Source of the DNA: Gammaproteobacteria bacterium
Lineage (GTDB): Bacteria > Pseudomonadota > Gammaproteobacteria > Pseudomonadales > Azotimanducaceae
Length of the DNA: 50,554 nucleotides
Reading direction: 5' to 3'
Assembly: GCA_026706425.1 (NCBI GenBank)
Contig: JAPOYW010000327.1
Coordinates: 1 to 50,554, forward strand
The notes under the pieces are model-generated. The model worked only from the letters and a program-made list of their open reading frames with translations, did no database searches and had not been told where the DNA came from. A program made the position numbers and the translations under genes. Position 1 is the first letter of the stretch; each line of letters opens with the position of its first letter. Positions 2,900 through 49,736 of the stretch are shown one piece after another.

Positions 2900-2982
2900 G
2901 CGTTCACCGTGCCGCCCCCACGACGGGTGAGTGTCACCGACAACGGTTTCCTGCCCATTGCCGCACAGTATCAAGATGTAAC

Positions 2983-3016
2983 GAAGCCGGCGACCGCTTT
3001 CGTGGTCGCCGGCTTC
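2983..3016 (-). terminator. Perfect 13-bp stem with an 8-nt loop, downstream of the thiolase gene
   Basis: GAAGCCGGCGACC-gctttcgt-GGTCGCCGGCTTC lies 53 nt 3' of the thiolase stop. The U-tract on the minus strand is weak (gttacatctt), so activity as an intrinsic terminator is uncertain. Confidence 0.45.
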
Positions 3017-7400: not shown

Positions 7401-7457
7401 GAACGCGCACGACAGTGCGACTCGGGCCGACCGGCCCAATTCGGGGGTACTACTCAT
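4422..7457 (-). CDS. TonB-dependent receptor (1011 aa)
   Basis: Signal peptide, then a TonB-box-like EEVIVTGS and a plug domain (FTRDELVNEGTPTVLDLVKNLS, VNIRGLGPSRSLVLINGRR, IERVEILRDGAAATYGSDAIAGVMNF), followed by a long Gly/Tyr/Asp-rich barrel. Confidence 0.9.
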   Translation of the reverse strand: MSSTPELGRSARVALSCAFAFSVIATLSAHGQDNTSAEPPDETVEEVIVTGSYIKGTPEDAPLPVTTFTRDELVNEGTPTVLDLVKNLSFSQGADGETDQFQAGAGADRATVNIRGLGPSRSLVLINGRRTTWSPHAIGAQAQLLVDVNVIPSVAIERVEILRDGAAATYGSDAIAGVMNFITRSDFVGFEASANHKVIDASDGDTELGIIWGREFADGRGHLVTSFSHIERGELTLSDRDWAVLPYADSPTGGWSSVGRPSVVVPLRTWNGLSAAGLGGFTGLLLGGIVDPNCEVLGGTRTTVLPQNPLGGFCRFQYTAFDNIAEEAQRWQWLTEGSWEIDDNTTLSANFLMTDSDVPGWNTSPSYPPNRLIDANRTIRANNPGLVDMASRYPDLYGDLAWCGASYCGWAGDPAQDAAGIPTEWQEVAWFYGRTFGQDGPLRDHPRENDLWRLEVALDGSTERYDWTLSAVYSGSERYSGGADTMVYRDARARQGLGGFECEAAVPNEYDANGNLVFSLETVMAHAGQGPCRYWIPFSNSMRGSHPQVKNGIANNPTFNPALNNQDLYDYLLTELGGTGETSLLVLEGVIGGPLAFTLPGGEVSYAAGAHWRSESYQSGPWDINDFDLFPCAAGPEIRNCTTDRNGLFGFLPPSTDIDQDRNIYAFFGELQLPLASTLEAQLSLRYEDYGSATGSSLDPKAAIRWQATPSIGFRASLGTTFRGPTLNQTVADDSSNSLQFVGATGAFKRVDTKGNPDLQPEEATTVNVGLLVDHDGLLLGDDNLFVTLDYWSYDFEKPLVTEPFGAVLGAACPGACDPSSPYFDRLAFGGPPAPTNLEIIDVYIVNGPDIKTDGVDFTARYALPVGPGIATFGVTGTQILGYEIDAWVLGDAYDALGSMNYGTSLARSLVEWKGRAMINYAVGPVNVRYRANYVDEYERDTADVTVEEQLTHDLHVNVALASERLDVWASVLNISDEDPPFTGIEMNYDAFTHNPFGRIVKLGVTYYMGN

Positions 7458-7717
7458 GGGATGTGCCTCGCAAGGTTGGTTGAGTGACTACGGGCGTACC
7501 GCCTCCACAAACGGCGGCCACCCCAGCTCAGGCGCGGACCATAACCGAGTTTTCCCTGCTCTGCGACCCTAGGGAACCCAGCCCCTAGGATCGCAGTTGG
7601 TAGTGCACGCTGCGGCGGGACGTGCGCGCGTTCTGCGCCACGGTTATTCTCCTAGCGTTGTTGAGCAAGTCCTTCTTTTCGGTTGAGCAAGCCCTTGGAA
7701 ACGCACGGCGGCGAGAC

Positions 7718-10886: not shown

Positions 10887-13358
10887 TCACCAGCGATACT
10901 GGAGACGCCCGACGACGTGGCGCGGCAGCTCCGGCAGCACGATCACACCACCGAAGAGGTTGGGGAAATTCGCCCGGAAGTAGCGCTCGTCGCTTAAGTT
11001 CTTGGCCGTCGCCGAGAGCGTCCAGTTGCCCCGTTCGAAGACGAAGCCGGCATTGACCAGCGTGTACGCCGGCAGCCGGACGGAGTTGGCGAACCCCGAG
11101 TGGACAGCGTCCACGTCCACCACGCTCGCCGAGACCGCCAGGCCGTTGCCGAAGGCGTACGTGCCGGTCAAGGACACGATGTTCTCCGGGATACCGGCCC
11201 TGCGGGCGCCGTCGCGGCCGGGCTTGACGATCGAACCGCCAAGGGCCCCTCCGTAGAAGGCCTCGGGAGGGACGCCCGGGATGTCGTCCGCGCCGATGAA
11301 GCTGAACCGGCCACCGGCGTTGAGGGTGTTGAGGTTCACGACCTCGATACGCGAGTAGCCGAGGCTGAAGAGCAGCCGGTCATTGACCGCCCAGCGCGCC
11401 TCGAACTCGGCCCCCGTGGTCTGTGCCGCCTGGTTGGTGTCCACCGACTGGGCGGAGTAGTCGGTTCGTTCCTGTTCGTAGACCGCCGCCGCCAGGTAGA
11501 GCCTCTCGTCCAGAACGCTGGCCTTGACCCCGACCTCGCGCAGCGTGGAGTGGTCGAAGGCCGTGCCGTCGGCGACATTCGCTGGCGCGATGTCGGCACC
11601 TTGGCCGGCGATCACCGTGCCCTGGCTCGACATCGTCACGTAGGGGATGATGCCGGCGTCGTTATCGAGGCTGAGGCTCAGGGTCCAGGACACCGCGTCG
11701 ACGCGATCCGACGCCTCGGCGACGACGCAGGACGCATCCAGGCAGAAGTGGGTGGCGCTCGGCAGCAGAAGCTTGTCCACCGGCTGGCGGCTCTCGAAGG
11801 CGATGCTGTCGTAGCGCACGCCGGCCAGCATGTTCAGACGCCGCCAATCCGCGTCCACGAGAACGGCCAGACCCAGGTCGACGTAGTCGCCGACGTGGTA
11901 GCGGCTGTAGTCGTCGTCGATCTGGGTTGCGAGCAACCGCCGATCGAGGGCGCTCGCAGGCTTGGTCAGGTCGCGCCGATCGAAGTACTCGTTGGTGAAG
12001 TCATCGCCGTGGTCGAAGTCCGTCACCCGGACCGAAGGCGAAAACTGCACGGTGGCTTCCGCGCCTCCGCGCCGGAGTCGCTTGGCCAGCACGAGCTTGT
12101 CCTCGAACACCGCCGCGTCGTGGAACGACGAGAACCCGTAAGCCACCTCGTTCACATTGTCGTAGCTCTCGTAGAAGGCTTGGTTGCGCCATTCCCAACC
12201 GCCGGCGGTGGTGCCCACGACGTCGAAATAGAGTGTCAGAACCTCGTTGGCAAGTTCGTCCTCCGCGGCGATCAGGACCTGGCTGCCTTCGATCGCCGCC
12301 GTGCCGACGTTGTCGAGCAACAGGAGATCCGGCCGGCAACCGAAGAGCGTCGTCGTGCCGATCGAGCACGCGCCGGGAAACGGGCCCGGCCCTAGCTGCG
12401 CAGTCGTGCCGGGCTTGAGGCCCGCAGCGAACGGATTGAGATCGGTGAAGCCGTTGCCGTCGACGTCGAACTCCTGGTGCGAGATGCGTCCGTCGCCGTT
12501 GGTGTCCAAGGGTTTCGGTGAACCGGTGATGTAGGTGCCGGTGTCGATGAGGTCCTGCGTCAGACGGTTCCACCCGGCATTCTCCGTGCCCGTAAACTCG
12601 TGGTACATGCCGCCGAACTGCAGGCCAACGGCGCCCACATCCATATCGAACGACGCCTGGATGAGCGTCTGCGAGATGTCGCCGTGGTCGTAGTAGCTGC
12701 CGGAATCCTCGGCCTCCGCATACAACCAATAGCCGAAGTCCTCGCTGCCGAGACGCCCCGGCCCACCCACTTCCGCCGTGGCGATGCGCCGGCCCCAAGA
12801 GCCGAAGTCCACGCCGGCACTGCCGGTGGCCTCTTCGATGAATTCCCCGGTCGCCTCGATGCGCGCCGACTTCGGATTGAAATTGAGGTAGCCGCCGATC
12901 TTCGCCGGGCCGTGAATCGGCGACGCCGGGCCCCGAACGATGTCAACCCGCTCGGACGCGCCGATGGGCGTCGGATAGTTGCCGGGATTGTCGAGACGCC
13001 GGATGCCCCGGAAATAGGTCTCGCCGGTGGTCCCGCGAATGTCCAGAGTGCCCGCGACACCGAAGAACGACTGCGTGAAGCTGCCCGGTGCCAGCGCGAT
13101 CAACTCGTCGATGTCGCGGATGTTGAAGCGCGCCATCATCTCGTCGCTGACAGTGGACGCCGAGCGTGGCGTATCGAGCAGCGACCGGCCGAATCCGAAA
13201 ACCGTGCGCATCTCGTCGTCCGGCAAGCTGTCGAGATCCGCCGTCACGACCAACTCCTCGACGTCGTCGTCGGGGTCGGCAGTAGCGGTTGCGGTACCGG
13301 CGCAAACGGTGGCGAGAGTCACGAGGATCGCGAAGCGCGGACGCCCACACACGGGCAC
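10887..13358 (-). CDS. TonB-dependent receptor with an EF-hand-like loop
   Basis: Plug motifs are present (FGFGRSLLDTPRSASTVSDEMM, LDIRGTTGETYFRGIRR, VDIVRGPASPIHGPAKIGGYLNF), and the protein ends RLQYRW. The GTG at 13358 follows AAGGAG by 5 nt and yields the signal peptide MPVCGRPRFAILVTLATVCAGTATA. The ORF maximum is 13391. Confidence 0.88.
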   Translation of the reverse strand: MPVCGRPRFAILVTLATVCAGTATATADPDDDVEELVVTADLDSLPDDEMRTVFGFGRSLLDTPRSASTVSDEMMARFNIRDIDELIALAPGSFTQSFFGVAGTLDIRGTTGETYFRGIRRLDNPGNYPTPIGASERVDIVRGPASPIHGPAKIGGYLNFNPKSARIEATGEFIEEATGSAGVDFGSWGRRIATAEVGGPGRLGSEDFGYWLYAEAEDSGSYYDHGDISQTLIQASFDMDVGAVGLQFGGMYHEFTGTENAGWNRLTQDLIDTGTYITGSPKPLDTNGDGRISHQEFDVDGNGFTDLNPFAAGLKPGTTAQLGPGPFPGACSIGTTTLFGCRPDLLLLDNVGTAAIEGSQVLIAAEDELANEVLTLYFDVVGTTAGGWEWRNQAFYESYDNVNEVAYGFSSFHDAAVFEDKLVLAKRLRRGGAEATVQFSPSVRVTDFDHGDDFTNEYFDRRDLTKPASALDRRLLATQIDDDYSRYHVGDYVDLGLAVLVDADWRRLNMLAGVRYDSIAFESRQPVDKLLLPSATHFCLDASCVVAEASDRVDAVSWTLSLSLDNDAGIIPYVTMSSQGTVIAGQGADIAPANVADGTAFDHSTLREVGVKASVLDERLYLAAAVYEQERTDYSAQSVDTNQAAQTTGAEFEARWAVNDRLLFSLGYSRIEVVNLNTLNAGGRFSFIGADDIPGVPPEAFYGGALGGSIVKPGRDGARRAGIPENIVSLTGTYAFGNGLAVSASVVDVDAVHSGFANSVRLPAYTLVNAGFVFERGNWTLSATAKNLSDERYFRANFPNLFGGVIVLPELPRHVVGRLQYRW

Positions 13359-13735
13359 GGCAACTCCTTGAAGGGTTCGAAGCGGCGGCACCGTAACGTA
13401 AAACCCCTTTTGCGAGAACCCCGATGTCGCCTTTCGAACTCCGAATGTCGGCTTTCCGGGCCGTCGTTCACGTTCGACATGAACGGCCGAGCGGTACCGC
13501 GGTCAGCTTCGACTCGGTGCTGCCGGTCGCAGCATCCACGGCCGCCTCCGCGGCGTCCACTACCCTCCAAGGGTCAAGCTCGTCGCGAGGTCGATCCCGA
13601 GGCGTGTTACGTTTGTGCTTGGACCGTTTCGTTGCCGAATGATGACACCCCGTCGACCTGGCGTCCGAGGTTGTCGGGAAAGAAGCGGGGCGGACCCGTC
13701 CGTCAGTTTTTTGGCAGCTTGAGGAGAGAGACGCA

Positions 13736-14304: not shown

Positions 14305-17039
14305 CTACTGCGTATTGACCTTCAGGCTCACCCCGTAGCTGATGCCTGCGTTGTAGCGTTCATAGAGCAGCCCGCCCTGACGCCACTCGACGGCGTCGTC
14401 CAAGAGGTTCGACGCCTTGAACTCGATCTGGGCATCGAAACCAAACACGTCGAAGAGGTAGCGCGCGAGGAAATCCAGCTTGCCGCGAGCGTCCTCGACG
14501 ATGTTGGGGGCATTCTCCGCACCCACCAGGACGATGCGGTCGCCCGTGTGGTTATAGGCGAGCGACCCCTCGATGCCGCGGCTTGAGTCGACATAGCTCA
14601 GCATCAGGTTGCCCAACACGTCCGATTGGCCGCTCAAGGCCCGTTCGTTTTCAAACAGCCGGGCAATCTGGCGCGATCCTGTGACGGGCACGTCGGCGGC
14701 CGTCTCGCCTTCCCCGAACAGGGTCACTTGGGAGTCCATCAACGTGACGTTCGCGTTCAGCTTGAAGAAATCCCACGACGCGCCCAAGCCGAACCACTCG
14801 CCGAAGAACAGGTCCTTGCGCAGCTCGACCTCGACACCCTGAAGCTCCGCTTCTTCACCGTTGAACCACGTGTAGATGTCGTTCTGCGCCTGGACTTTGC
14901 CGACCTCGATGGGGTTGTCGAAGAACTTCTGGAAAACGCCGATCGACAGGCTTAAGTCTTTGCCGAAGTACCACTCCCAACGGGCGTCGAGATTGTCGAC
15001 TTTGGCGGGTGCCAAGAAGACGTTGCCGCGATAGAGGTTCGAGTCCTCCGGGTTGCGCAGCGTGGTGCCGGTGATCTCGAGCAGACTCGGCCGGTTCAGC
15101 GTGTTGGAGTACGCGAGGCGCAGCTGCATGTCGTTCACCAACTCGAGAGTGAGGGAGGCCGAGGCCAAGATGTCGACGTAGTCCTGGCTAACGGCGTTGC
15201 TGGTGCCGGCCTGGGTGTTGCCACCGTAGGCGTCCGCGAACAGGGTCGTCTCCTCCTGGCGGAAGCCTGCGGCCGCGCGGACTCGCGGCGTGAGCTGCGC
15301 ATCGAACCCTAGGTAGACCGACATCGTCTCTTCGCCCGACTCGGCGAACGGGAAGATGCCCGCGGCGTTCGCCGCACCCGCCGAGAAGTCGCGCACATCC
15401 AGATAGCCCTTGCCCCAATTCTCGAGGCCGAAGAGCTGGTAGGGGGTCATCAGGGCGATGTGGCCCGGGGCCAGCGACGTGATGTCGAACCGGAAGAAGC
15501 GATCGGCGCTGGCGCGCGTCCGTTCGTAGCTGGAAGCGCCGAGGATGGCCGTCATCTCCACGTCGCCGGCATAGAAGGGCAGCTCCGCGTCGACGCCGTA
15601 TTCGCTGATCTCGTCGCGCAGTTCCGTGTATACGCGGTCTGGTGCTGGAACACCTCGCGCAGGTCGCCGGCGGCTTGGCGGCTCGGCGTCACGACCTCCT
15701 CGAGGCCCTCGGCATTCTCTGCGTAGGTGTAGGTGCGCGTGTCGGGCGACTTGCGGGTCGCCGCCCCATCGGTCGCGCGCCAGTTGATGCTCATCTGGTG
15801 GAAAGGGCCGACGTTGAAGTAGTGCTCGCCCTTCAACTGCGTCGAGCGGATGGTGTTCTCCGTCCACTGGAAGCGGTAGCTCACCACCGGCGTGCCGTCG
15901 GTCACGTCGTCCTCGCTCGACAGGCCGCGCAACCGCTGGGTCTCGTCGTCGGTCTGGGCAAGCACGACCTGGGACAACTGGATCGAGTGGCCGTCGCCGA
16001 ATTCGAACCCGGAGTTGACGAAACCGGCCCAGTCGATGGTCTGCCGGGTGGTGAACTGCCTGTAGTCGACGGTTTGCGTGCTGCCGCCGTCGACGCCGCT
16101 GAACTCGTAGCGCCGGAAGTCCTTGTCGCGGTTCCTCCACTTGCTGCCGTAGCGGCCCGCGGTCAACACCCCGGCAGAGAAGCCCGGGAAGTCGCCGCGC
16201 AAACCCAGTTCGCCACTCCCGGTGAAGTTGGGCTTGAGTCGCTGCTTCTCGAAGACCTCCCAGTGGTTGTAGAAACTGGCACCCAGGTCCGCGCTGTCCG
16301 GCCACGGCACCGCTTCGAAGTCGTCGCTGCTCATCCCGGCGATGTTCCGCGGCATCTTGCGCGTCCCCTCGTCGAACCCCCAGTTGTCAGCCGGACCGCC
16401 GCGATAGGACAGGCCTTCCCCTTGCGTGGTCTCCGAGTCGCCGGCAACCCCGGCTTTGAGCGTCGCGTAGTTGCGGTCGGGCGTCGCGCGGGTGCGGATC
16501 ATCACCGTGCCGCCGCTGAAGTCGCCCGGCAGGTCCGGCGAGTAGGTCTTCTGTACCAGGAGGTTGCGCACGATCGCCGTCGGGACGATGTCGAGCGGCA
16601 CGGTTTTCTGGAACGGAACCGGCGACGACAGCCGGCTGCCGTCCAGCACGGTGGACGAGTAGCGCTCGCCCAAGCCCCTCACGTAGACGTACTTGTCGCC
16701 GACGAGGCTTAAGCCCGTTACCCGCGACAGGGCACCGCCGACGTCGGTGTCCGGCATCAGCGCCAGCTCCTCGTAGTCGAGCATGTTCGCCACTTCGGCC
16801 GTGATCCGCTTATCGCCCGGGATGAACTGGCCGAGGACTACGACCTCCTCGACGTCACCGGGGTTTTGCAACACCACGCGGTTGTGCTGGCGCTCGCCGT
16901 CTGACTCCTGGGCCGAGGCGCCGGGGCCGGCGCCCAAGCCCAAGGCCATCGTCCAGATCATTGCCAACACGTGTGCGAGGGGTGCCCCCTCGCGCTCCCC
17001 GGCTGAAGGCTCTTTGCGATTCATTGCTACTCCCGGCAT
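14305..17039 (-). pseudogene. TonB-dependent receptor (about 910 aa) interrupted by one frameshift near 15630..15650
   Basis: The N-terminal frame (17039 to 15552) carries a signal peptide and plug (VEEVVVLGQF, LSRVTGLSLVGDKYVYVRGLGERYSSTVLDG). The barrel continues in another frame (from about 15633, VYTELRDEISEYGVDAELPFYAG, to the stop at 14305). The two frames are contiguous and differ by 1 nt. Confidence 0.75.
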
Positions 17040-17058: not shown

Positions 17059-20000
17059 CTACTGCGTTACGCCGACGGTCCAGCCCGAACCCCAATTTGC
17101 GATGTCGGAACCGATGACGGTGTCGCCCGCGGGGTCGAGGCCCGCAGGCAGGGCAACCGGATTGGGCGTCGTGCCGTCCTGGGTGACGTTGGTCGAGCGG
17201 TCGAGGAAGTCCTGGACGAGCTGCACTTCGTCCTGGGCCGTATCGGGGTCATCGCGGGCGTCGTTGACGGTCGAGCAGTCGAGGCCGACGCCTTGAAACG
17301 TGATCCGGGTGTTGAGCAGGTTCACCGACTCGCCGTCGACGCGCACGCACTGCGCCGAGCCGGAGACCAGCGTGTTGTAGAGATGCACGCCCGTGCCGCG
17401 CCGCAAGCGGAGTGCGCGGTCCGTGGAATTGCCCACCATCGTTGCGTTGGCGATCGTCGGTTCCGAGATGGGCGTCGCCTGCTCGGCCTGCTCGCGGTTG
17501 TCCGCCTCGATCAGTTGGTCGCCGGCACCTTGGGTCTGCTCGATGTGCAGATACTGGATGCTGCCGGTCCAGCCGTCGGTCCAGTCCAGGCTGTCGTCCG
17601 CGTTGCCGATGAGGACCACGTGGTTCGCATTGACAGTGCCGCCGAAGAGCTCGATACCGTCGTCGAGGTTGTTGTAGACCTCGATGTAGTCTACTTCCGT
17701 GCCGTCGCCCACGCCCTGGAAGGCGATGCCGTTCAACTGGTTCTCCGGGTCCACGTTCGAGCCCGCGAACTTGACCACCACGTAGTGGAGCCTTCCGCTC
17801 GAGTCGTTCGGATCGCCGCCGCCGAAGAGTCCGGAATTCGCCTCGCCTTCCTTGGTGCACTCGGCGGTGCCACCGGTCGCGCCTTGCGGACAGTCGTTGA
17901 TCGGCGCATTGCCGTTGATCACCAGGCCGCCCCACAGTCCCCGGGTGGTCTCGGGGTTGGCGATGTCGCCGTCGACGTCGTCCGCCGCCGTCAAGGTGAT
18001 CGGGGCGTTCTTCGTACCGTTGGCGAGAATCTGCGACCCGCGCGCGATGACGAGGAAGTCGGTCGGGTTGTCGCCGATGATCGTCGTGCCGGACTCGATG
18101 TGCAGCGTGCCGGAGTCCGCATTGTCACCGCCCACGGTGACCTTGCCGTCGAGGATGTAGTAGTTGCTGCGCGTGAGCGCCAGTGCGCCGGAGATCGTGC
18201 CGGAGATCTGACAGGTCCGCCGACCGCCAACCTCGCTGATCTGCGCCGTGCCGTCGGGGCACGCGAAGTCGGCGGTCGCACTCGGCATGGCCACAGTCCA
18301 GCCCGTCGTCCAGTCCTCGTCGTTACTCTCCACGGCACCGATGAAATCCGTCGCGTCGAAGAAGCTCATCGCACTCAGGTCCGCCGCGCGCACCGACTGG
18401 CCGGTGGTCGACACGTTGCTGCTCGCGCCGAGCAAATTGTTGATCGCCGAAACGTCGTCGCCTTCCACCACCGTGTCGCAGTCGAAACTCAACCCCTCGA
18501 ACGTGATGCCGCCGCCGAGTAGATTCAGCGACTCGCCTTGGATGCGCAGGCACCTCTCGCTGTCCTGGACAACCGAGCTGTAAAGCTCGAGCCCGGTGCC
18601 GCGGCGAAGCCTGATGGCCCGCTCGCCAGGGTGGCCGGTGATGGTCATGTTCGCGATCTTCGGGCGTGACCGTGGCGTGGCGTTCTCGTCGCCTTCCCGG
18701 TTGTCCGCCTCGATTCCGTTGTCGCCGGCGTCGGCGGCCTGGTCGATGACCAGGTACTGGATGCTCCCCGTCCAGCCGTCGGTCCAGTCCAGCGAGTCGT
18801 CGGCATTGCCGGTGAGCACGACGTGCTTGGCGTTCACGGTGCCGCCGAAGAACTCGATGCCATCGTCAAGGTTGTTGTGGACCTGGATGTAGTCCACCAC
18901 GGTGCCGTCGCCCACGGCCTGGAAGGAAACCCCGTTGAGCTGGTTCTCGGGATCCACGTTGGCCCCGGCGTACTTGACCACGACGTAGCTCAGCGTGCCG
19001 CTCGAGTCGTTCGGATCCGCGCCGCCGAAGAGGCCGGAATTCGCCTCCCCTTCCTTCGTACAGGCCGTCGTGCCTCCCGTGGCACCCTCCGGACAGTCGT
19101 TGATCGGCGCATTGCCGTTGATCACCAAGCCGCCCCACTCTCCTCTCGTCGTCTCGATGTCAACCGAGCCCTCGAGGTCGGATTGGCTGGTCAGCGTGAT
19201 CGGTGCGGTGCGTGAACCGTTGGCGACGATCTGCGAACCCCGGGAGATGACCAGGAAGTCCACGGCCGTGCCGCCGAAGATCGTCGTGCCCGCCTGGACG
19301 GTGAGCATCGCCGAGGCCTCGTTGTCGCCGCCGATGACCACCTTGCCGACCAGTTCGTAGAGATTATTGCTGGTAAGCAGCAGATCCTGGTTGATCGTAC
19401 CGTTCAGTTGGCAGACGCGCTTACCCGTCAGCGTGCGGCTGGAAACGGTCGTGCCGTCCGGGCAGCCGAAGTCGGGCTGCGAGGCGCCGCTCACGGAACC
19501 CGCATACGTCCAGCCGGCGGACCAATCCTCGGTCCCGAAGGCGCCGATGAAGTCCACGGCGTCGAAGAACGAGTCGCCCAAACTCACCGGGTCTACGCCG
19601 TCGCCGTTGACCGAAACGTTCGTAGCGCTCGCCAGGTACGCCGCAACGGCACCGTCATCGTCGTTCCGGTTCGTCTGCGCACACGCGAAGCTGACCCCCT
19701 CGATCGTCAGGTCCGTGCCGAGGAGGTCGCGGCTGGTGCCGTCGACGCGGATGCAGGTGGCGGAACCGCCGACAAAGCTGTTGCTTAGCGCCAAACCGGT
19801 GCCGCGCCGGAGGCGCAAGGCGTTTTCGTCAGGTTTGCCGAGTACGGTCATGTTGGCGATGCTCGGGTTGGAGCGAGGCATCGCGCCTTCGTCGCCTTCA
19901 CGGTTGTCCGCCTCGATGGCGTTGTCCGCCGAGTCGGTCTGTTCGATGTAGAGGTACTGGATGCGCCCGGTCCAGCCGTCGGTCCAGTCCAGCGAGTCAT

Positions 20001-20946
20001 CGGCGTTGCCGGTTAGGACAATGTACTTGGCGTCGACCGTGCCGCCGAAGAACTCGACGCCGTCATCCAGGTTGCTGTGGACCTGCACGTACTCCACGGT
20101 AGTGGCGTCGCCGACACCGTGGAAAGCGATGCCGTTCCGCTGGTTCTCCGGATCTACGTTCGAACCGGCGAACCGCACACTGACGTAGCGCAGAACGCCC
20201 GAGTTGTCGTTGGCATTGTCGCCGCCGAAGAGACCGGAGTTGGCCTCGCCCTCCTTGGTGCAGTCGGCCGTGCCGCCGGACGCGCCCTCGGGGCAGTCGT
20301 TGATCGGCGCATAGCCGTTGATGACGAGCCCCCCCCAGAGGCCACGGTCGTTGTCTTCCGCGTCGCCATCGACCTCGGCGCGGGCCGTGAACACGATCGG
20401 CTGGTCAGCGGTGCCGTCCGCCATCAGCGCACAGCCCTGCTCGATGATCAGGAAGTCGGTGCTGGAACCGCCGGCGATCACCGCGCCGGGTGCCATGTCG
20501 AGTTGGCATTCCGGCAATCCGCCACCGCTGCTCACAGCGGCGCCATCGGGCGCGGTAATGCGGGCGGCCCCGCCTGCGATCTCGAAGATGACATCGTTGC
20601 CGAGCACCAAGCCCGCGGGATCCAAGGCCGACGTGTCGCTGACATCGATCGTGTAGATCGGCTTGTTGCCGAATGCCGCACCGGCGGACTCGCCGGAGTT
20701 CGAGATCACGTCCTCGAGAGCGCTCGGGATCACTGTCGCGACGGTCGTCTCATCGACCGGATCCTGACTCCCGCTGTCGTCGTCGTCGCCGTCGTCGTCT
20801 TCATCATCATCGTCACCGCCGACATGGACCGGCACTTCCACGATGACCGAACCGGGTGATGCGTTTTCGGACGACCCGCCACATGCGGCGAGGACCAAGG
20901 CGACGCACGCCGGCGCGCCCAGCCTGAGCAGATTAGTGAGGTTCAT
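17059..20946 (-). CDS. Large lipoprotein (1295 aa) made of three tandem modules of about 400 aa; family not recognised
   Basis: The ATG at 20946 gives MNLTNLLRLGAPACVALVLAACGG, a lipobox LAAC. This is followed by a poly-Asp tract and then three copies of ...WGGLVINGxAPINDCPxGAxGGTxxCTKEGEANSGLFGG...NGxxFxxVGDxTxVxYxxVxxNLDDGxExFGGTVxAxxxVLxGNADDSLDWTDGWTGxIQY...EADNRE...LRLRRGTG.... The stop codon is 19 nt upstream of the TBDR start. Confidence 0.85.
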   Translation of the reverse strand: MNLTNLLRLGAPACVALVLAACGGSSENASPGSVIVEVPVHVGGDDDDEDDDGDDDDSGSQDPVDETTVATVIPSALEDVISNSGESAGAAFGNKPIYTIDVSDTSALDPAGLVLGNDVIFEIAGGAARITAPDGAAVSSGGGLPECQLDMAPGAVIAGGSSTDFLIIEQGCALMADGTADQPIVFTARAEVDGDAEDNDRGLWGGLVINGYAPINDCPEGASGGTADCTKEGEANSGLFGGDNANDNSGVLRYVSVRFAGSNVDPENQRNGIAFHGVGDATTVEYVQVHSNLDDGVEFFGGTVDAKYIVLTGNADDSLDWTDGWTGRIQYLYIEQTDSADNAIEADNREGDEGAMPRSNPSIANMTVLGKPDENALRLRRGTGLALSNSFVGGSATCIRVDGTSRDLLGTDLTIEGVSFACAQTNRNDDDGAVAAYLASATNVSVNGDGVDPVSLGDSFFDAVDFIGAFGTEDWSAGWTYAGSVSGASQPDFGCPDGTTVSSRTLTGKRVCQLNGTINQDLLLTSNNLYELVGKVVIGGDNEASAMLTVQAGTTIFGGTAVDFLVISRGSQIVANGSRTAPITLTSQSDLEGSVDIETTRGEWGGLVINGNAPINDCPEGATGGTTACTKEGEANSGLFGGADPNDSSGTLSYVVVKYAGANVDPENQLNGVSFQAVGDGTVVDYIQVHNNLDDGIEFFGGTVNAKHVVLTGNADDSLDWTDGWTGSIQYLVIDQAADAGDNGIEADNREGDENATPRSRPKIANMTITGHPGERAIRLRRGTGLELYSSVVQDSERCLRIQGESLNLLGGGITFEGLSFDCDTVVEGDDVSAINNLLGASSNVSTTGQSVRAADLSAMSFFDATDFIGAVESNDEDWTTGWTVAMPSATADFACPDGTAQISEVGGRRTCQISGTISGALALTRSNYYILDGKVTVGGDNADSGTLHIESGTTIIGDNPTDFLVIARGSQILANGTKNAPITLTAADDVDGDIANPETTRGLWGGLVINGNAPINDCPQGATGGTAECTKEGEANSGLFGGGDPNDSSGRLHYVVVKFAGSNVDPENQLNGIAFQGVGDGTEVDYIEVYNNLDDGIELFGGTVNANHVVLIGNADDSLDWTDGWTGSIQYLHIEQTQGAGDQLIEADNREQAEQATPISEPTIANATMVGNSTDRALRLRRGTGVHLYNTLVSGSAQCVRVDGESVNLLNTRITFQGVGLDCSTVNDARDDPDTAQDEVQLVQDFLDRSTNVTQDGTTPNPVALPAGLDPAGDTVIGSDIANWGSGWTVGVTQ
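17062..20667 (-). repeat. Three in-frame tandem coding modules, period about 1200 nt (roughly 19495..20667, 18292..19494 and 17062..18291)
   Basis: The WGGLVING motif recurs at residues 225, 625 and 1026 of the 1316-aa ORF. The cores of modules 2 and 3 are about 80% identical by eye. Stretches such as ccgtcggtccagtccag recur at the DNA level. Confidence 0.8.
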
Positions 20947-21110
20947 GTGCCCCCAAGAGGTACCGCATGCGCGACAGACCGCGTGACCCGGTCGAAGGAC
21001 GCACAGCACGCCTGCATCGACGGGAAGTAGAACCTACCGGCGGACCATGAACGTACGGTTACAAAACCGTTTTGTTATTGTGACAGCGCCTTAAGGCAAG
21101 ACGACGCGCG

Positions 21111-22373
21111 TTGCGGAAATACTGGCGCTTCTACTGGCCGCTCGCCCTGACCGGCGTCGCGATGGTGCTCGCGGTCCAGTTCCAGAACGGCGCGCTGGCG
21201 CGCTACCCGAACGCGGTCACCGAACTCGCCGTGTTCGCCTTGGCTTCCAGCACGTTCGGGTTCCTCAACGCGGGGCTCAACTTTGCCCCCCAACTCTCCA
21301 ACGTGTTCGCCCGCAGCCCTCACGGCAAGCGGCTGAGTCACGGGTTCATCGCCGTGTGGAGCCTGGTCCTGACCATCCCCCTGGCCCTGATTGCAACGAC
21401 GCCGGGCGGGGCGGCCGGCGTCGCGCTCGCGTACGGAATCGACGCGCCATTGACCGAGCGGGTAATCGAGTACCTGCTCTACATGCTGCCGCTGTTGTTC
21501 ATCACCGCGCAGCGGATGTTCTACACGGGGCTCCTGGTGCAGGCGCAACTGACAGGCTGGGTCACCGCGCTGAACGCGGTGTTCCTCGCGGCAGCCGTCA
21601 TCGCTCTCGTGACCGGCTTCGCGATCGGGTTGGAACCTGTGCTCACCGTTGTCGGTGCGCAGACCATCGCCGGCGTCCTGCATTGGGGCCTCACCGCGCT
21701 GGTGTACCGCACCCGTTATCGGTGGCCCGTGACCCTCGAGCACGAGACCCTCCGCGTTGCCGAACTGCTGCGCTTCTTCCTGCCGATGACCGCCACCGGC
21801 GTGATGTTCGCGATCAGCCGACCCGTGCTCTACGCCTTCGTCAGCCGCATGCCCGATGGCATCGCCAGCATCGCCGCGCTACGCGTCGCCTTCGATTTCA
21901 GCACGATGTTCCAGCAGGCGGCGAACCAGTTCCGGCATTTCTTCGTGACTTTCGGTTTGGACGACATCGAGACCAAGCGGCGGTTCATGGCGCTCGTTGG
22001 CGCCGGGTTGACCGCCATCATGCTCGGCATCACGTTGACACCCCTGTCGCTGTGGATCCTAGGCGGCTTGCTCGGCATCCAAGGCCAGGTGCTGGACCAC
22101 GCCACCGAGGTCCTGCTGGTGATGTGTCTCATGCCCGTCGTGATCATCGCGCGGAACTACTTCCACGGCACGCTGATGGTCAAGCGCCGCACCGGCAGCA
22201 TGGCCATCGGCGGCGTGATGCGGGTGCTGGCCATCGCCGTTCTCGCGCAAGCGGCGTTCGCCGCAGGGTGGCTCGACCATGTCGTCGCTGCCGTCATTCT
22301 CCTGCTCGGCTTCGTTGCCGAGACGGTGGTCGTCCTCGTGGGACACACGCGGCTGAAAACGCGAGCCGTCTGA
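21111..22373 (+). CDS. Polytopic membrane protein (about 12 TM), MATE/MOP-superfamily-like
   Basis: 420 aa, hydrophobic throughout, with regularly spaced helices (YWPLALTGVAMVLAVQF, LAVFALASSTFGFL, IAVWSLVLTIPLALI and others). TTG start. The family assignment rests only on overall architecture. Confidence 0.65.
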   Translation: MRKYWRFYWPLALTGVAMVLAVQFQNGALARYPNAVTELAVFALASSTFGFLNAGLNFAPQLSNVFARSPHGKRLSHGFIAVWSLVLTIPLALIATTPGGAAGVALAYGIDAPLTERVIEYLLYMLPLLFITAQRMFYTGLLVQAQLTGWVTALNAVFLAAAVIALVTGFAIGLEPVLTVVGAQTIAGVLHWGLTALVYRTRYRWPVTLEHETLRVAELLRFFLPMTATGVMFAISRPVLYAFVSRMPDGIASIAALRVAFDFSTMFQQAANQFRHFFVTFGLDDIETKRRFMALVGAGLTAIMLGITLTPLSLWILGGLLGIQGQVLDHATEVLLVMCLMPVVIIARNYFHGTLMVKRRTGSMAIGGVMRVLAIAVLAQAAFAAGWLDHVVAAVILLLGFVAETVVVLVGHTRLKTRAV

Positions 22374-23257: not shown

Positions 23258-25744
23258 CTACAGCCTGTAGTTCAACTGCACCCCGAACGTGCGCGGTCGA
23301 CCGAACCGGTAGCCCACCTGGTTGAGTTCGTAGACCACGGTTTCGTCGAACAAGTTGCGGATGTAGGCACCGACCTGCCAGTCGTCCCGTCCCAGCAGTA
23401 GCTTAGCGTCGAAGGTCTCGTACGCGGGCGCCGGGCGCTCGTTGTTGGCGGTGTTCCAGGACTCCGCGATCATGTAGCCGTCCAGGCGCGCTTGGGCGTT
23501 GTAGCCGGCCAGGACGAAGTCGTACATCAACGCGGCGTAGCCGCTGTACTCGGGCGCGTTGGCCAAGCGGTTCCCCGGCTCGATGGCCACGCCCCCGTAG
23601 CGCCCCCGGCCGGCAGCCCCGATCACGGCCTCCCAGTTCCAGTCGCCGCCGAAGTTGAGGCGCAGATTGTCCGTCAACACCGTGCGGATCTCGAAGTCCA
23701 TCCCCTGGCTCTCCGCCGTGCCGCCGTTGATGTTGTAGTTGAACGGCAATGGCGATACGCCCGGAACGTCCGGAATCTCGTCGCTGACGCTGATGATCGT
23801 GTCCTTCCAATCGAGTTGGTAGAGAGAACCGACGAAGCTGACGCGACCGTCGGCGACGGTGGCCTTGATGCCCAGCTCGTAGTTGACGACGGAGTCGCCA
23901 TCGACCTCCTGCAGGTCGTTCAAGTTCTGGTAGTACTGCTCGGCTGCCGGGTTGCCAGCGCGCACCGCATCCAGTTCGGCGATCCGCGTGGCGAGCCCCG
24001 TGTTGATGATCCCCGGCCGGAACCCGGACGAATACGTGCCGTAGATCATCAAGTCGGTCCTCGGGCGCCAAGTGAGGGTGACTTTCGGCGACAGGAACCG
24101 GCTCGGCGTGGAGAGTGACCTGTCGGGGTTGTCGCGAGAATCGCTGCCGGGCGGGGCGAGGTCCAGGTCGTACTGGACGCGTGCCGAACGCGCGCCGACG
24201 AGTAGCTCCCACTGTTCGTTGAAGCGGTACGAGACCTCGCCGAAGAGCGACTCCTCGCCGAATGTGCGGAAGTTGGTGGTGCCCGGGTAGATCGCCGTGT
24301 TCAGCCAGAGGACGATGGCCTGTTGCGTGGCCAAGGGCACATTGTCGTAGAACGAATACTGCAACGCGCAGTGCGTATCGATGCCGGCGTAGAGTGGCGA
24401 CCCGCCCTCGTGGCACGCGCTGTGGCGCGTGCCCTGGGATTCGTCGTCCTTGTAGTAGCCGCCAACCGTCCATTGCCACGGTCCATCCGTATTGGATACC
24501 AGCCGAAGCTCCTGAACGAAGCGCTCGGTCGCTCGGTAGAAGATGCCGTCGCCACCGAGGCTCGCCAACGTGTTGGGCCCGCACCCGGGGACGGCCCCGA
24601 AACATGCCGCTCCATTGACCAGACCCCGCAGCCCGGCCGAGAACCTGGGGCTCGTTTCCTCGGAGTAGTCCGTCTGGCGGTCGAAGTACGACGTGGAGGC
24701 GGTCAGGTCGGCGAAGGCCAGTTCCCACTCGATGTTGAAGTTGTACATCGCCTGGTCGTCCCAGCCGCCGCTCGTGTGGGTCGGGTGCGCCAAGTGCGTG
24801 ACGTACGGATCGCGGCCGAACTGGTCGAACTGGCCCGCGCAGGTCGTGCCGGGCAGGTCGTACTCGGGGAACTGGCCACCCGGGTCCGACGGCGTCGACT
24901 CGGTGAAGCAGTGGTAGCCGAGGCCGGGGCCACCGTAGTCGCCGTTGATGATGTTGACCATCGCGGACACCTCGACGGTGTCGCTCGGGAACCAGGCCAC
25001 CTTGATGCGTGCGCCGTCCTCGAGGAACGTGTCCACGTCTTTCTCGTTGCGGGGCGCGACCTGGTCGAGAATCCCCACTCTGTCGCGGCGGTACGCGACC
25101 AAGCGCGCTGCGAGGCGGTCGCCCAGCGGGATGTTCACCATGGCGTCGGCGCGGTACGAGAGGCCGTCGGATTCGCCGATGTCCTCGACGTTGGTCTGGA
25201 ACGAGTAGTCGAAGCCGCTCGGGTCGGGTTTCTTGGTGATGTAGCGGATCGAGCCGCCGAGGTTGCCTTCGCCGTACAGCGTGCCTTGCGGACCCTTGAG
25301 GACCTCGACGCGTTCCATGTCGAACAATGCGCCCAAGGTCTGCGACAGCCCGCCGGTATTGCTGTCCGTCATCGGCAGGTTGTCCGTGTAGACGCCGACC
25401 ATGGCGCCGCCGCCACCGGACGGTGGGGTCAGTCCCCGAACCGACAGCGTGTTGTAGGTCTGCGAGTTGGTGCGGTACGCCAAGCCGGGGATCGACTGGT
25501 AGAGCGTCTGGATGTCCTCGATACCCTTGGCGACGATCTCGGCGTCGGTGACCGCCGAGATGGTCAGGGGGGTATTCATCAGTCGGGTGTCGCGGTAGGT
25601 CGCCGAGACGATGATCTCCTCGATGTCCTCGCCCTGTGTTTCTTCCTGGCCCTCGTCGTCCTGCGCGAGCGCGGGCGCCGTTCCGAGCAGGAGAGCGCCG
25701 GCCAAAGCCGAGGTTAGCGAGCGAAGCGGAAACGGTGTGGTCAT
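23258..25744 (-). CDS. TonB-dependent receptor (828 aa)
   Basis: Signal peptide MTTPFPLRSLTSALAGALLLGTAPALAQ, then IEEIIVSATYR. Plug motifs are TISAVTDAEIVAKGIEDIQTLYQSIPGL, LSVRGL and MERVEVLKGPQGTLYGEGNLGGSIRYITKKP. The protein ends FGVQLNYRL. Confidence 0.9.
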   Translation of the reverse strand: MTTPFPLRSLTSALAGALLLGTAPALAQDDEGQEETQGEDIEEIIVSATYRDTRLMNTPLTISAVTDAEIVAKGIEDIQTLYQSIPGLAYRTNSQTYNTLSVRGLTPPSGGGGAMVGVYTDNLPMTDSNTGGLSQTLGALFDMERVEVLKGPQGTLYGEGNLGGSIRYITKKPDPSGFDYSFQTNVEDIGESDGLSYRADAMVNIPLGDRLAARLVAYRRDRVGILDQVAPRNEKDVDTFLEDGARIKVAWFPSDTVEVSAMVNIINGDYGGPGLGYHCFTESTPSDPGGQFPEYDLPGTTCAGQFDQFGRDPYVTHLAHPTHTSGGWDDQAMYNFNIEWELAFADLTASTSYFDRQTDYSEETSPRFSAGLRGLVNGAACFGAVPGCGPNTLASLGGDGIFYRATERFVQELRLVSNTDGPWQWTVGGYYKDDESQGTRHSACHEGGSPLYAGIDTHCALQYSFYDNVPLATQQAIVLWLNTAIYPGTTNFRTFGEESLFGEVSYRFNEQWELLVGARSARVQYDLDLAPPGSDSRDNPDRSLSTPSRFLSPKVTLTWRPRTDLMIYGTYSSGFRPGIINTGLATRIAELDAVRAGNPAAEQYYQNLNDLQEVDGDSVVNYELGIKATVADGRVSFVGSLYQLDWKDTIISVSDEIPDVPGVSPLPFNYNINGGTAESQGMDFEIRTVLTDNLRLNFGGDWNWEAVIGAAGRGRYGGVAIEPGNRLANAPEYSGYAALMYDFVLAGYNAQARLDGYMIAESWNTANNERPAPAYETFDAKLLLGRDDWQVGAYIRNLFDETVVYELNQVGYRFGRPRTFGVQLNYRL

Positions 25745-25814: not shown

Positions 25815-26729
25815 CTAGGACTGCCAGCTATTGCGACCCGTGCGCAGCGTCTTGGCCCCATCGGCCTTGTAGCCGCCGTTCTTCTGGTCGAGGAAGGCCG
25901 GGCCCTCCTCCATCCACCCCATGTGTTCGTTGAGTCCCGCCAACTGGCGGAATACCGCGTTGTTGCCGTGCCGGTCGATCACGTCCTGCGGCAAGGCGTC
26001 GCCATAGCGCTCCTGCACTTTCCAGTACGGGCGGGCGTGGTACACGGCCAAGTTCAGCCGTAGCCCCGGGATCCGGCGCGGGTAGCTGCCGTGCCACATG
26101 TTGCCGTGCCAGATCACCGCGTCCCCGGCGCGAATCTCCATGGCTTGCGCGTTCGGATTCGCAGCCGGGCCGTCCAGGAAAATCTCCGAGGGTTCGGGGT
26201 TGCGCGCCCACTTGTGGCTTCCCGGCACGATCGCGAGGCACCCGCCTTCCTTGGAATAGTCGGTCAGCGCGTAGTTGATGTTCGCCACCTGCGAATACGG
26301 CGGGAGCGGCGCCGGCATGCCGGTGTCCGTGTGCAGCGGAAGCTGGCCGCCGTCGCCCGGCCCCTTGAAGTGGCAGGTCATGGACGAAAGCTGGGCGCTC
26401 TTGCCGAGCAGGTAGTGCATCAGCGCGACCGAAGTCTCGTTGAGGAGGATGTCCTGAAAGACCGGATGGCGCGGCATCAGGTAGGGAATGAGGCGCCAGT
26501 CTGGATGCGAATCGCCCTTCTCGAAGTCCGGCTCGACGCCCGTCTGGCGCTCGCAGATGTCCGCCAGGGCCTGCCGCGCCGTGGACGTCGTGTCGTCGTC
26601 AAGAATGCCTTCGAGGACGGTGAATCCGTAGGCGTCGAGCTCTAAGACCCGCTTCTCGAGCCCGAGCCGCTCGATCTCGGCCATGACGTCGTTGAGATCC
26701 TCGCACGCGGCGTAGTGGTGACTGTGCAT
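25815..26729 (-). CDS. Phytanoyl-CoA dioxygenase (PhyH) family Fe(II)/2-oxoglutarate oxygenase
   Basis: The HxD motif is in LPLHTDTG and the distal His is in VIWHGNMWHGSYPRR. Size and layout are typical of PhyH proteins. The gene lies 70 nt upstream of the TBDR on the same strand. Confidence 0.8.
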   Translation of the reverse strand: MHSHHYAACEDLNDVMAEIERLGLEKRVLELDAYGFTVLEGILDDDTTSTARQALADICERQTGVEPDFEKGDSHPDWRLIPYLMPRHPVFQDILLNETSVALMHYLLGKSAQLSSMTCHFKGPGDGGQLPLHTDTGMPAPLPPYSQVANINYALTDYSKEGGCLAIVPGSHKWARNPEPSEIFLDGPAANPNAQAMEIRAGDAVIWHGNMWHGSYPRRIPGLRLNLAVYHARPYWKVQERYGDALPQDVIDRHGNNAVFRQLAGLNEHMGWMEEGPAFLDQKNGGYKADGAKTLRTGRNSWQS

Positions 26730-26771
26730 CTCGCCTCCCTCAAGATGAACACCGCGAGACTATCACAGGGG

Positions 26772-28218
26772 TCAGGACACGGCCCGACGTTGCTGCAATT
26801 GCTCGACAATCGCCCTGTGTCGCTTGCGGGTGATGCGATAGCGCAGGTAGAACAGCAGGGCCAACAGCGAGAATACCGACGTGGCTGGGCCAGCGATCAG
26901 GCCCAGGTTCCAGACAGTCTCCGCTGGCACCTCGCCGCGCGTCGCGTTTCCGGGAAGTCGATCGCGGACAGCAGGATGCCGCCGAATAGAGTGCCGAAAG
27001 CCGCCGTGGCCTTGTTGGAGAACGCTCGGACCGCATAGAGCACGCCTTCGCGGCGGATACCCGTCTCCAATTCGTGCTCGTCGGCGACATCGGCGAGCAT
27101 GGAATTCTGGTTCGCGCCGATGATGGGCGCGGAGAGCGCACCGACCGTGGAGGCGCCAAGGAAGATCCACAACACCCAGATCGACTCGTTGCTGGGGTAC
27201 CAGGGCACATCCGATAGCCGCAGCACGATGGGCGTGTTCGCAGCCGTGATCCAGCAGGCGAGCGGGACCATCACGGCCATGCGCTTGTCGAGCAGGCGTG
27301 TCAAGGCCGGCGTGAGTACGAAGGCGACGGGAAACGAGACGAGACCTACTATCCCAAATAGGACAAGTCTTCGGTCGTGAAGCCCCAGAAGTGCACGCCC
27401 ACGAATGGCGTAAACGCGGACTCCACGCCGCCGACGATGGATCCAAGGACGATGGCCGCGAAGAGTGCCCGGAACGACCGGTTCGTGAGCACCGCGCCCA
27501 TCTCCTTGAACACCGTGAGCACGCCGAACCGTTCGCGGTTCTGCGTCTCACGTAGATGCGGAATCTCCCGCGCGGTCCCCAGTACGCACAGCACGATCGC
27601 GAGCGCCATAACGACGGTGAAGTGCAGCGACAACAACGGGTAGCGCCCGGCGTTCAGGAGCCCCGGGTCGAAATCGTCCGTGGTCGGGAAGTAGTAGCGC
27701 ATGATCAGGCCGTAGGACACCGCCACGGACATCGCCCCGATGAAGGCCGAGTACGCGAACAGGGTGGAGCGCTGGTCGTAGTCGTGCGCCATCTCGGCAC
27801 CTAGCGCCAGGTGCGGGATGTTGTAGAACGTATAGGACGCCCGGACGAGGACGCCGAAAACCATCAGCCAAAGGAAGTTGCCGAGTTCCGAGAGTCCCTC
27901 GGGCGGGTTGAAAAGCGCGATGAAAGTCGCGGCCAGCGGCACGGATGCGGCTAGCAGCATCGGATGACGGCGACCCCAACGAGTGCGGATGCGGTCCGAC
28001 CAAGTCCCGATGAGCGGGTCGGTTACAGCGTCGATCATCACTGCGATGGCTATGGCGAGACCGACGAGCGCGGCCTCCACCCCGATGACCTGCTGGTAGT
28101 AGAAGAGCAGCAGAACACCCCAAGCCATGTTCTTGAACGCGCCCGATGCCTCGCCGATGCCAAAGGCCAGCATCGTGGCAACGCTCAAACGGCGTTGTGC
28201 CAAAGCCAAGCCCACCAA
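26772..28218 (-). pseudogene. GPH-family (MelB-like) MFS cation symporter with two frameshifts
   Basis: The GPH signature is DAVTDPLIGTWSDRIRTRWGRRHPMLLAA. The reading frame changes near 27352..27372 (EDLSYLG* continues as LFGIVGLVSFPVAFVLTPALTRLLDKR). It changes again near 26948..26956 (SAIDFP continues as GNATRGEVPAETVWNLGLIAGPATS), at a cccgg run. Confidence 0.75.
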
Positions 28219-28309
28219 GGATCCCTTACGAACGCAAACGATACGCGAAGATGTACGGTTGGCGGCCAGCCCCGCGCACGACTGCCGCTGCCGGGCTGCA
28301 GCCCCTCGA

Positions 28310-28412
28310 GGTGCGCGCGGACCGGAGGTCCGCCGCCTCCCGGCCCGCTCTTGAACAGGGTGCTACGCCGTGTGCGGACGTGGACGCGGCGGACTACCGG
28401 TCCGCGCGCACC
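28310..28412. repeat. Imperfect palindromic element with 27-nt arms and a 49-nt loop (REP/MITE-like)
   Basis: The left arm GGTGCGCGCGGACCGGAGGTCCGCCGC (28310..28336) pairs with the right arm GCGGCGGACTACCGGTCCGCGCGCACC (28386..28412) with 2 mismatches. The element starts 4 nt 3' of the APC permease stop. The right arm recurs at 147..165. Confidence 0.7.

Positions 28413-45710: not shown

Positions 45711-49736
<4,026 letters not shown>

Follow-up and report, generated by a model that had tools for sequence, protein, structure and literature searches.

A three-module ElpS-family lipoprotein encoded beside a TonB-dependent receptor gene in a gammaproteobacterium of the Azotimanducaceae

Introduction

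ElpS (CC0170), a palmitoylated lipoprotein of the outer membrane of Caulobacter crescentus, was shown by fractionation and proteinase K treatment to be exposed on the cell surface; it is degraded by the protease on intact cells and is made only under phosphate starvation (Le Blastier et al. 2010, PMC2996285). Its gene lies directly upstream of those for the TonB-dependent receptor CC0171 and of a type II secretion cluster, and it is not induced by iron depletion (PMC2996285). Here we describe a relative of ElpS with three tandem modules, encoded in contig JAPOYW010000327.1 of a gammaproteobacterium of the Azotimanducaceae (assembly GCA_026706425.1). The whole stretch of 50,554 nucleotides (nt) that was analysed is called the window below. 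As in Caulobacter, the lipoprotein gene is followed on the same strand by a receptor gene, and we compare this pair with related loci from a broad range of bacteria.

Relatives of ElpS have been described outside the Proteobacteria. In Flavobacterium johnsoniae, the hypothetical pectin-lyase-fold lipoproteins FI, FII and FIII (Fjoh_3856, Fjoh_0546 and Fjoh_4889) belong here (Lidbury et al., PMC8115612). FII and the receptor Fjoh_0545 are encoded within the phoBR operon, and their induction upon phosphate depletion amounts to about 2^8- to 2^10-fold; when Fe is limiting, FII is repressed (PMC8115612). What ElpS and Fjoh_0546 respond to is phosphate rather than a limitation in N or Fe (PMC2996285, PMC8115612). 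A role connected with iron, considered for the window lipoprotein, is unlikely given the behavior of elpS and FII under iron limitation. In Bacteroides thetaiotaomicron, BT4056, which is stated to be homologous to ElpS, and BT4055 were proposed to form a "lid" and a non-SusC TonB-dependent transporter, with BT4056 predicted on the outer face of the transporter; the proximity of the two genes is conserved in 621 genera, 171 of them Proteobacteria (bioRxiv 10.1101/2023.03.17.533168). A further ElpS homologue, XAC0692, is encoded in the xcs cluster of Xanthomonas (PMC7777525). ElpS-type lipoproteins rank among the proteins whose induction by phosphate starvation is strongest in Caulobacter and Flavobacterium, and in hundreds of genera they have a single type of receptor as their partner.

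Results

Architecture of the lipoprotein

The lipoprotein gene and its parts are located in the window as follows.

17059..20946, minus strand: lipoprotein gene including the stop codon, 1295 amino acids (aa), ElpS family (open reading frame and translation; ElpS homology)
20881..20946, minus strand: signal peptide with lipobox LAAC, residues 1-22 (read from the sequence)
20776..20814, minus strand: Asp/Glu-rich low-complexity linker DDDDEDDDGDDDD, residues 45-57 (sequence)
19498..20766, minus strand: module 1, predicted ElpS-like beta-helix, residues ~61-483 (self-alignment, BLASTP to ElpS, key residues)
18286..19497, minus strand: module 2, predicted ElpS-like beta-helix, residues 484-887 (AlphaFold2, BLASTP, hhalign)
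17062..18285, minus strand: module 3, predicted ElpS-like beta-helix, residues 888-1295 (self-alignment, ElpS match, key residues, two-module model)

The open reading frame (ORF) starts at an ATG with GGGGG ahead of it and ends in TAG. The lipoprotein signal was assigned by rule from the sequence: the N terminus reads MNLTNLLRLGAPACVALVLAAC/GG with the lipobox in the context LVLAAC/GG, Cys22 is the predicted lipidated residue, and position +2 is occupied by Gly rather than Asp. For comparison, a scan with one genome per species yielded 80 loci (L001-L080) with flanks of up to 6 kb, which span Alpha- and Gammaproteobacteria, Bdellovibrionota, Myxococcota and Desulfobacterales. The arrangement of signal and lipobox is the same in the orthologues L001-L005 as in the window.

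The motif after the lipid-bearing Cys reads CGGSSxNxSPG in the window clade, CSDTxISSPG in alphaproteobacteria, CGGDININEG in Alteromonadales and CGSDDISSPG in ElpS, and it is followed by a low-complexity linker of varied makeup (PT, PE, GGG, GGD or D/E). At the position of the acidic tract, orthologues carry PEPE, GGGTT, GGD or VEPP instead of D/E. Because the makeup of the linker is not conserved in relatives, the acidic tract is a spacer; a metal-binding site in this tract was considered and is ruled out by the unrelated composition found at the same place in orthologues.

Self-alignment gave pairwise identities of 53%, 51% and 61% among the three modules of about 400 aa, a similarity far beyond chance. 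WGGLVING recurs at residues 204, 604 and 1005, that is, with a period of 400-401 aa. Each of NDCPxG, CTKEGEANSGLFGG, NLDDGxExFGGTV, GNADDSLDWTDGWTG and EADNRE occurs three times, once per module, LRLRRGTG is found in modules 1 and 3 with the variant IRLRRGTG in module 2, and W..GWT closes each module (residues 475, 879 and 1285). The first ~70 residues of module 1 are unlike those of modules 2 and 3. Outside the signal peptide there are 18 Cys at equivalent positions across the three modules, consistent with three Cys pairs, as putative disulfides, in each; this fits an extracytoplasmic, disulfide-bonded protein. Binding of metal by the DD..D motifs within the modules is plausible from their sequence. 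A first-pass annotation of the window, made from the DNA letters alone, had already described the lipobox, the 13-residue Asp/Glu tract and three tandem modules of about 400 aa with common motifs, all of which we find as described and, for the tract, at exactly the same coordinates.

Membership in the ElpS family

Searches against local copies of Pfam and NCBIfam assigned the lipoprotein to no family, the sole match being a sub-threshold and meaningless one to "FeS". A large protein database contained more than 3855 homologues, all nameless, and all of them carry the precomputed Pfam tag PF28492.1, which the local copy of Pfam does not include; the literature was searched for "PF28492" without result. 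The sequence of ElpS was obtained by scanning a metagenome collection with a quantitative PCR primer from Table S2 of PMC2996285, which gave a single hit, contig L081. The contig holds a 512-aa ORF with LAGC at residues 17-20, Asn38 and the C terminus TACTSLPTN. This C terminus is the one encoded by the published FLAG-fusion primer, and the N terminus MKLFRNL is one residue apart from the MKLYRNL of the cloning primer. Based on these matches to the published details, the ORF was taken as an ElpS orthologue.

Module 2 aligns end to end with this orthologue at 32% identity (BLASTP E 3e-56), modules 1 and 3 match it with E 7e-47 and 1.5e-47, respectively, and hhalign of the family profile against it gives a probability of 100%. 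The receptor downstream of the lipoprotein in the window and the one downstream of ElpS in L081 are homologous as well (29% identity, E 9e-48). Since all three modules match ElpS over its whole length and the downstream receptors are homologous, we assign the lipoprotein on sequence grounds to the family of ElpS, FI-FIII and BT4056 (tag PF28492), as a three-module member. It combines whole-domain homology to ElpS with a lipobox signal and a CC0171-type receptor gene alongside on the same strand. The homology to ElpS contradicts the first-pass annotation, in which the protein had been called unrecognised and had been placed in no named family.

Predicted fold

Module 2 was modelled with AlphaFold2 from an alignment of 47 homologues. 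The model, a series of successive short strands, has a mean predicted local distance difference test score (pLDDT) of 96.2 and a predicted template-modelling score (pTM) of 0.94, and it predicts a single module to be a right-handed beta-helix. When it was compared with the PDB using Foldseek, every match was a right-handed beta-helix protein, including tailspikes, PL6 and PL9 lyases, GH28, GH87 and GH110 enzymes, and AlgG/AlgE. The parallel beta-helix guessed earlier from the residue pattern is thus borne out by the model. The matches are weak, with a best E of 1.7e-3 and TM-scores of at most 0.44, and none is a close relative; the PL9 lyase Pel9A (PDB 1ru4) stands at rank 11 with a probability of 0.98 and a TM-score of 0.37. 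Sequence searches of the PDB with the single protein and with the family profile gave no match, and the Pfam family Beta_helix was matched weakly by 16 of 48 homologues. We found no SusD- or TbpB-type fold or domains, the predicted fold being a beta-helix and matching Pfam domains being absent (the Slam-dependent type was included in this check). There was likewise no significant sequence similarity or close structural similarity to polysaccharide lyases or hydrolases (PL1, PL6, PL9, GH28 and others). A model of modules 2 and 3 together (pLDDT 92.1, pTM 0.85) is less confident at the junction and suggests a defined relative arrangement of the two modules.

Module number and a conserved residue cluster

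Among 75 complete genes, 23 encode one module, 40 two and 12 three. A profile search of 1.84 billion representatives identified 8084 proteins at E <= 1e-3, of which 4147 reached E <= 1e-30, and in this large library up to five matched stretches occur in proteins of 1740-2403 aa (P0122, P0131, P0145 and P0212). In a neighbour-joining tree, modules of one protein or lineage group together (Alteromonas, Pseudoalteromonas, Rheinheimera, Colwellia, SAR86, several alphaproteobacteria and a metagenome-assembled genome of the Desulfobacterales), which argues that tandem duplication happened many times independently. In the window clade (L001, L004, L005 and L006) the triplication is common to all, and module 1 forms a branch separate from that of modules 2 and 3. 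Further examples of multi-module genes are those at 3178..7251 of L035 and 5191..8391 of L073.

Across 145 modules, D211, D212, E215, D233, D237 and E263 (module numbering) are invariant, and D234, D265 and R298 nearly so. Caulobacter ElpS has all nine of these acidic or Arg residues, as does every one of the three window modules; in module 2 they correspond to D694, D695, E698, D716, D717, D720, E746, D748 and R781. Judged by its sequence, no window module appears degenerate.

A single-module form of ~590 aa was also seen (L008, L010-L012, L038, L044, L055, L058 and L071). It has an ordinary signal peptide without a lipobox and an extra N-terminal domain of ~170 aa without a family match. The lipobox is also lacking in L006 and L007.

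Pairing with a TonB-dependent receptor and gene neighborhood

Receptor orthologues were defined by E < 1e-20 to the receptor encoded downstream in the window. Their positions relative to the lipoprotein gene were as follows.

62 loci: receptor directly downstream, same strand
2 loci: receptor directly upstream of the lipoprotein gene
3 loci: receptor further along, same strand
6 loci: receptor position undeterminable, because the contig ends
7 loci: no receptor orthologue within the fetched locus (flank up to 6 kb)

The receptor gene is thus directly downstream in 62 of the 74 informative loci and on the same strand within the locus in 67 of 74. The pairing with a TonB-dependent receptor pointed out by the first-pass annotation therefore holds across the homologues surveyed. 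A match of the module to a characterised family unrelated to receptor-linked uptake and a loss of the receptor synteny were both looked for, and neither was found.

Orthologues of PhoB are encoded within 6 kb in 23 of the 80 loci and those of PhoR in 20, representatives exceeding the NCBIfam cut-offs for PhoB or PhoR. The phoBR genes are placed in three ways, upstream and co-directional, upstream and divergent, or downstream, which points to a functional rather than an inherited linkage. In four of the loci with the ~590-aa form (L008, L010, L012 and L038), phoBR follows the receptor gene. Ten loci, all of Alteromonadales, contain a gene for a PstS-family binding protein. In six loci, among them those of Alteromonas (L035 at 2147..2983, and L045 and L046 at the same position), a gene for a 2OG-Fe(II) oxygenase (2OG-FeII_Oxy_3) stands between the pstS-like and the ElpS-like gene.

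Downstream of the receptor gene, a six-gene TonB system recurs (DUF3450/TtpB, TtpC, ExbB, ExbD, TonB and a tetratricopeptide repeat protein), for example in L015, L027, L030 and L035. The TonB3 operon of Vibrio also starts with a receptor gene (PMC6957404), and the pair-linked system might be the same as TonB3. GspC, GspD and a prepilin peptidase recur in Alphaproteobacteria, in the Caulobacter arrangement, and it is only in alphaproteobacterial loci that GspC and GspD come after the receptor. Among the window ORFs that were scanned against Pfam, none showed a type II secretion domain, and the linkage known from Caulobacter and from the Xanthomonas xcs cluster was not seen there; linkage to type II secretion is lineage-specific and does not define the family.

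Association with the Pho regulon

We searched the loci for Pho-box-like sites, defined as CTGTCAY-N4-CTGTCAY with at least 12 of 14 matches. Within -300..+60 of the lipoprotein gene there were 42 such sites, in 28 loci. The remaining 934 kb contained only 48, many of which precede receptor genes, TonB genes or phoB; this amounts to a 29-fold enrichment near the gene. For 20 permuted half-site motifs, the corresponding counts were 0-4 sites. The ElpS family is associated with the Pho regulon. This link to phosphate starvation was missing from the first-pass annotation and emerges from the phoBR linkage and the Pho-box enrichment in relatives.

Upstream of the lipoprotein gene, the window contains the following region.

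20947..21110, no strand assigned: intergenic region shared with a divergent ANKH-like gene; no full Pho box

One perfect Pho half-site, CTGTCAC, is located at 21080..21086 on the minus strand. Beside it, at 21055..21070, is the 16-bp palindrome ACGGTTACAAAACCGT, which may be an operator. Reading CTGTCAC...TTGTAAC as a Pho box is unconvincing, as the spacing overlaps the palindrome. No promoter-like site was found, terminator-like sites were no more frequent than expected by chance, and an Rfam scan of the whole window returned nothing.

The receptor gene of the window and its surroundings

The receptor gene downstream of the lipoprotein gene is interrupted.

14305..17039, minus strand: TonB-dependent receptor, CC0171 / TonB-Xanth-Caul type, ~909 aa if read through; disrupted by a frameshift
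15644..15645, no strand assigned: 1-nt deletion shifting the receptor frame (tblastn against the L001 orthologue; contig comparison)

The match to the TonB-Xanth-Caul subfamily is below the subfamily cut-off. The gap between the two genes had been given as 19 nt; this is correct for the ATG at 17039, but the likelier start at 17024, which follows GGGAG and 5 nt, leaves a gap of 34 nt. The receptor had also been taken for an intact ORF. Its plug domain is in one frame and its barrel in another, split near 15644, whereas the receptor orthologues are single ORFs; this frameshift had been missed. Near-identical contigs from the metagenome runs X2 and X5 carry an extra C behind 15644, and an independent Logan contig of run X1 matches the window. 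A sponge metagenome run holds 99% of the sampled words of the window.

The frameshifted receptor gene is one of four genes for TonB-dependent receptors within ~21 kb, all on the minus strand (4422..7487, 10887..13391, 14305..17039 and 23258..25744). The gene divergent from the lipoprotein gene encodes a membrane protein (21111..22373, plus strand) that matches Pfam ANKH (E 1.3e-7, 31.7 bits; gathering cut-off 22) and is not conserved beside the lipoprotein gene in other loci. Two genes encode PhyH-family dioxygenases (25815..26759 and 35188..36003). An MFS_2 transporter ORF (27349..28362, minus strand) covers profile positions 2-262 of 427 and may be truncated or frameshifted. The gene for the large subunit of ribonucleotide reductase (45654..49736, plus strand) shows two matches to the ATP-cone, and an intein (Hint_2 and LAGLIDADG_3) interrupts it; the small-subunit gene (49756..50554, plus strand) follows.

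Discussion

The explanation that best accounts for the whole is that the window encodes a three-module surface lipoprotein of ElpS type, working with the receptor encoded downstream in the scavenging of phosphorus, to which we give a probability of about 0.6. Three modules, each predicted to be a right-handed beta-helix, would be tethered to lipidated Cys22 by a flexible acidic linker and, by homology to Caulobacter ElpS, would be displayed on the cell surface. The invariant residues, which cluster on successive helix rungs, most likely bind Ca2+ and, via Ca2+, a phosphorus-containing ligand, possibly a polymer. The ligand would be captured, perhaps cleaved, and passed on to the receptor for import powered by TonB, and in many genomes the dedicated TonB system would also take part. 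The presence of three modules would add valency.

Several points weigh against this reading. No ElpS-family member has a known ligand or activity. ElpS, when purified and refolded, had no phosphatase activity on p-nitrophenyl phosphate, and deletion of elpS left phosphatase levels unchanged (PMC2996285). AlphaFold-Multimer returned only few confident contacts between BT4056 and BT4055 (bioRxiv 10.1101/2023.03.17.533168). The binding of Ca2+ by the modules is something we infer from their residue pattern. In the window itself the cognate receptor gene is frameshifted, so the system may be impaired in this strain. No Pho box with up to 3 mismatches was found near the lipoprotein gene in the window, and phoBR is not adjacent; the two-component system encoded at 181..2387 had been a candidate for PhoBR, but it is EnvZ/OmpR-like, which rules it out. 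For want of a full Pho box and an adjacent phoBR, phosphate control of the window copy would follow from that of its family.

The state of the receptor gene could also mean that the locus is a decaying remnant in a sponge-associated bacterium, with a dead receptor and a lipoprotein drifting toward loss. The 1-nt deletion is shared with the independent X1 contig, although absent from those of X2 and X5, and the missing Pho box and the distance from phoBR would fit such decay. However, the 3.9-kb ORF of the lipoprotein is fully intact, and all three modules retain the nine key residues and Cys at all equivalent positions. The deletion is, moreover, a single event that could be recent, polymorphic or a consensus error, and we regard decay of the locus as unlikely. 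Scavenging of phosphorus with the lipoprotein as capture component also has to be set against a role first proposed for ElpS, that of an accessory factor by which secreted phosphatases are activated or stabilised, with nothing being delivered to the receptor. The inactivity of purified ElpS is in line with this proposal, and overexpression of ElpS increased phosphatase activity in culture supernatants (PMC2996285). The deletion mutant, with its unaltered phosphatase activity, speaks against it, and the proposal leaves unexplained why one type of receptor is encoded almost universally alongside on the same strand, why a dedicated TonB system is linked, and why every module has the invariant acidic cluster. 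We therefore think a phosphatase activator very unlikely. An adhesin or structural repeat protein, with the receptor adjacent by coincidence, would resemble some adhesins and tailspike-like proteins in placing a repetitive beta-helix on a long linker. Such a role is extremely unlikely in view of the receptor synteny across Alpha- and Gammaproteobacteria, Bdellovibrionota, Myxococcota and Desulfobacterales, which others have described for 621 genera as well (bioRxiv 10.1101/2023.03.17.533168), and of the common occurrence of single-module forms.

A different substrate has to be considered as well. The modules could be polysaccharide lyases or hydrolases that cut an acidic surface glycan, with the receptor taking up oligosaccharides as carbon, as in the carbohydrate-utilisation loci of proteobacterial TonB-dependent receptors. 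The predicted fold is of the pectate-lyase type, with Foldseek matches to PL9 Pel9A, PL6, GH28, GH87, GH110 and AlgG/AlgE, and the receptor matches TonB-Xanth-Caul, albeit below the cut-off. The acidic cluster and invariant Arg on successive rungs resemble the sites of Ca2+-dependent lyases. Lidbury et al. suggested plant glycans as targets of the homologues (PMC8115612). These structural matches are weak, however, and neither PDB chains nor the enzyme families of the local Pfam and NCBIfam are matched in sequence. The conserved neighbors found for the pair were phoBR, pstS, a TonB system and type II secretion genes, with no sugar-catabolic genes among them. The family also occurs in loci of Bdellovibrionota and Aliidiomarina, which to our knowledge are not known for glycan use. 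Given in addition that the regulated relatives answer to phosphate (PMC2996285, PMC8115612), glycan cleavage appears quite unlikely. Within the phosphorus-scavenging explanation, a more specific form can be proposed, which we offer tentatively and hold to be rather unlikely: each ElpS module would serve as a receptor or enzyme, dependent on Ca2+, whose target is a phosphorus compound of polymeric nature (for example polyphosphate, a phosphorylated glycan, teichoic-acid-like polymers or extracellular DNA), and independent duplication to 2-5 modules would raise avidity or processivity at a dedicated TonB importer. If true, this would define a new biochemical class of phosphorus-scavenging proteins, widespread in marine bacteria.

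In conclusion, the window does not add a new kind of system, and our comparative results extend the existing picture. In marine Gamma- and Alphaproteobacteria, as the survey shows, the pair is linked to phoBR, pstS, Pho boxes and a TonB system of its own. As far as we found in the searchable literature, the independent duplication of modules, the nine-residue cluster, and the linkage to phoBR, Pho boxes and a TonB system in marine proteobacteria have not been described. The acidic/Arg cluster is a concrete target for mutagenesis, and identifying the substrate would shed light on TonB-dependent import of phosphorus in marine bacteria.

Comparison with known systems

By comparison, ElpS/CC0171 of Caulobacter crescentus is most similar to the window pair. 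The lipoproteins share homology over the whole domain, the lipobox, an SPG-containing motif after the lipid-bearing Cys and the nine-residue cluster, and a homologous receptor is encoded directly downstream in both. They differ in that ElpS has one module (512 aa) instead of three and adjoins type II secretion genes, none of which were found when window ORFs were scanned against Pfam. In ElpS, other residues stand in place of several marine-clade motifs, for example DVDVGA for DWTxGW and VELQSLTPS for NELNGIAFQ. Phosphate control has been demonstrated for elpS, whereas for the window copy it is expected from the family.

Two of the FI, FII and FIII proteins are encoded beside low-phosphate-inducible receptors (PMC8115612), an arrangement like that of the window pair, and the location of FII in the phoBR operon parallels the phoBR linkage in 23 proteobacterial loci. 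These proteins are from Bacteroidota, were found in the exoproteome and have no described tandem modules, and they are likened to the window lipoprotein here by description. For BT4056, the role of a lid is a prediction from few confident contacts, and the three-module lipoprotein of the window, unlike what was proposed for BT4056, cannot be a simple one-to-one lid. SusCD, BtuG and HmuY resemble the window pair in that a surface lipoprotein is encoded beside a transporter and presumed to capture its substrate, but the folds of SusD-type, BtuG and HmuY lipoproteins are unrelated to the ElpS-family beta-helix. Conversely, the PL9 lyase Pel9A (PDB 1ru4) shares with the modules a right-handed beta-helix, predicted in our case, in which a basic residue comes after acidic ones on successive rungs, and is set apart from them by its low TM-score (0.37), the absence of detectable sequence similarity, and another genomic and regulatory context.

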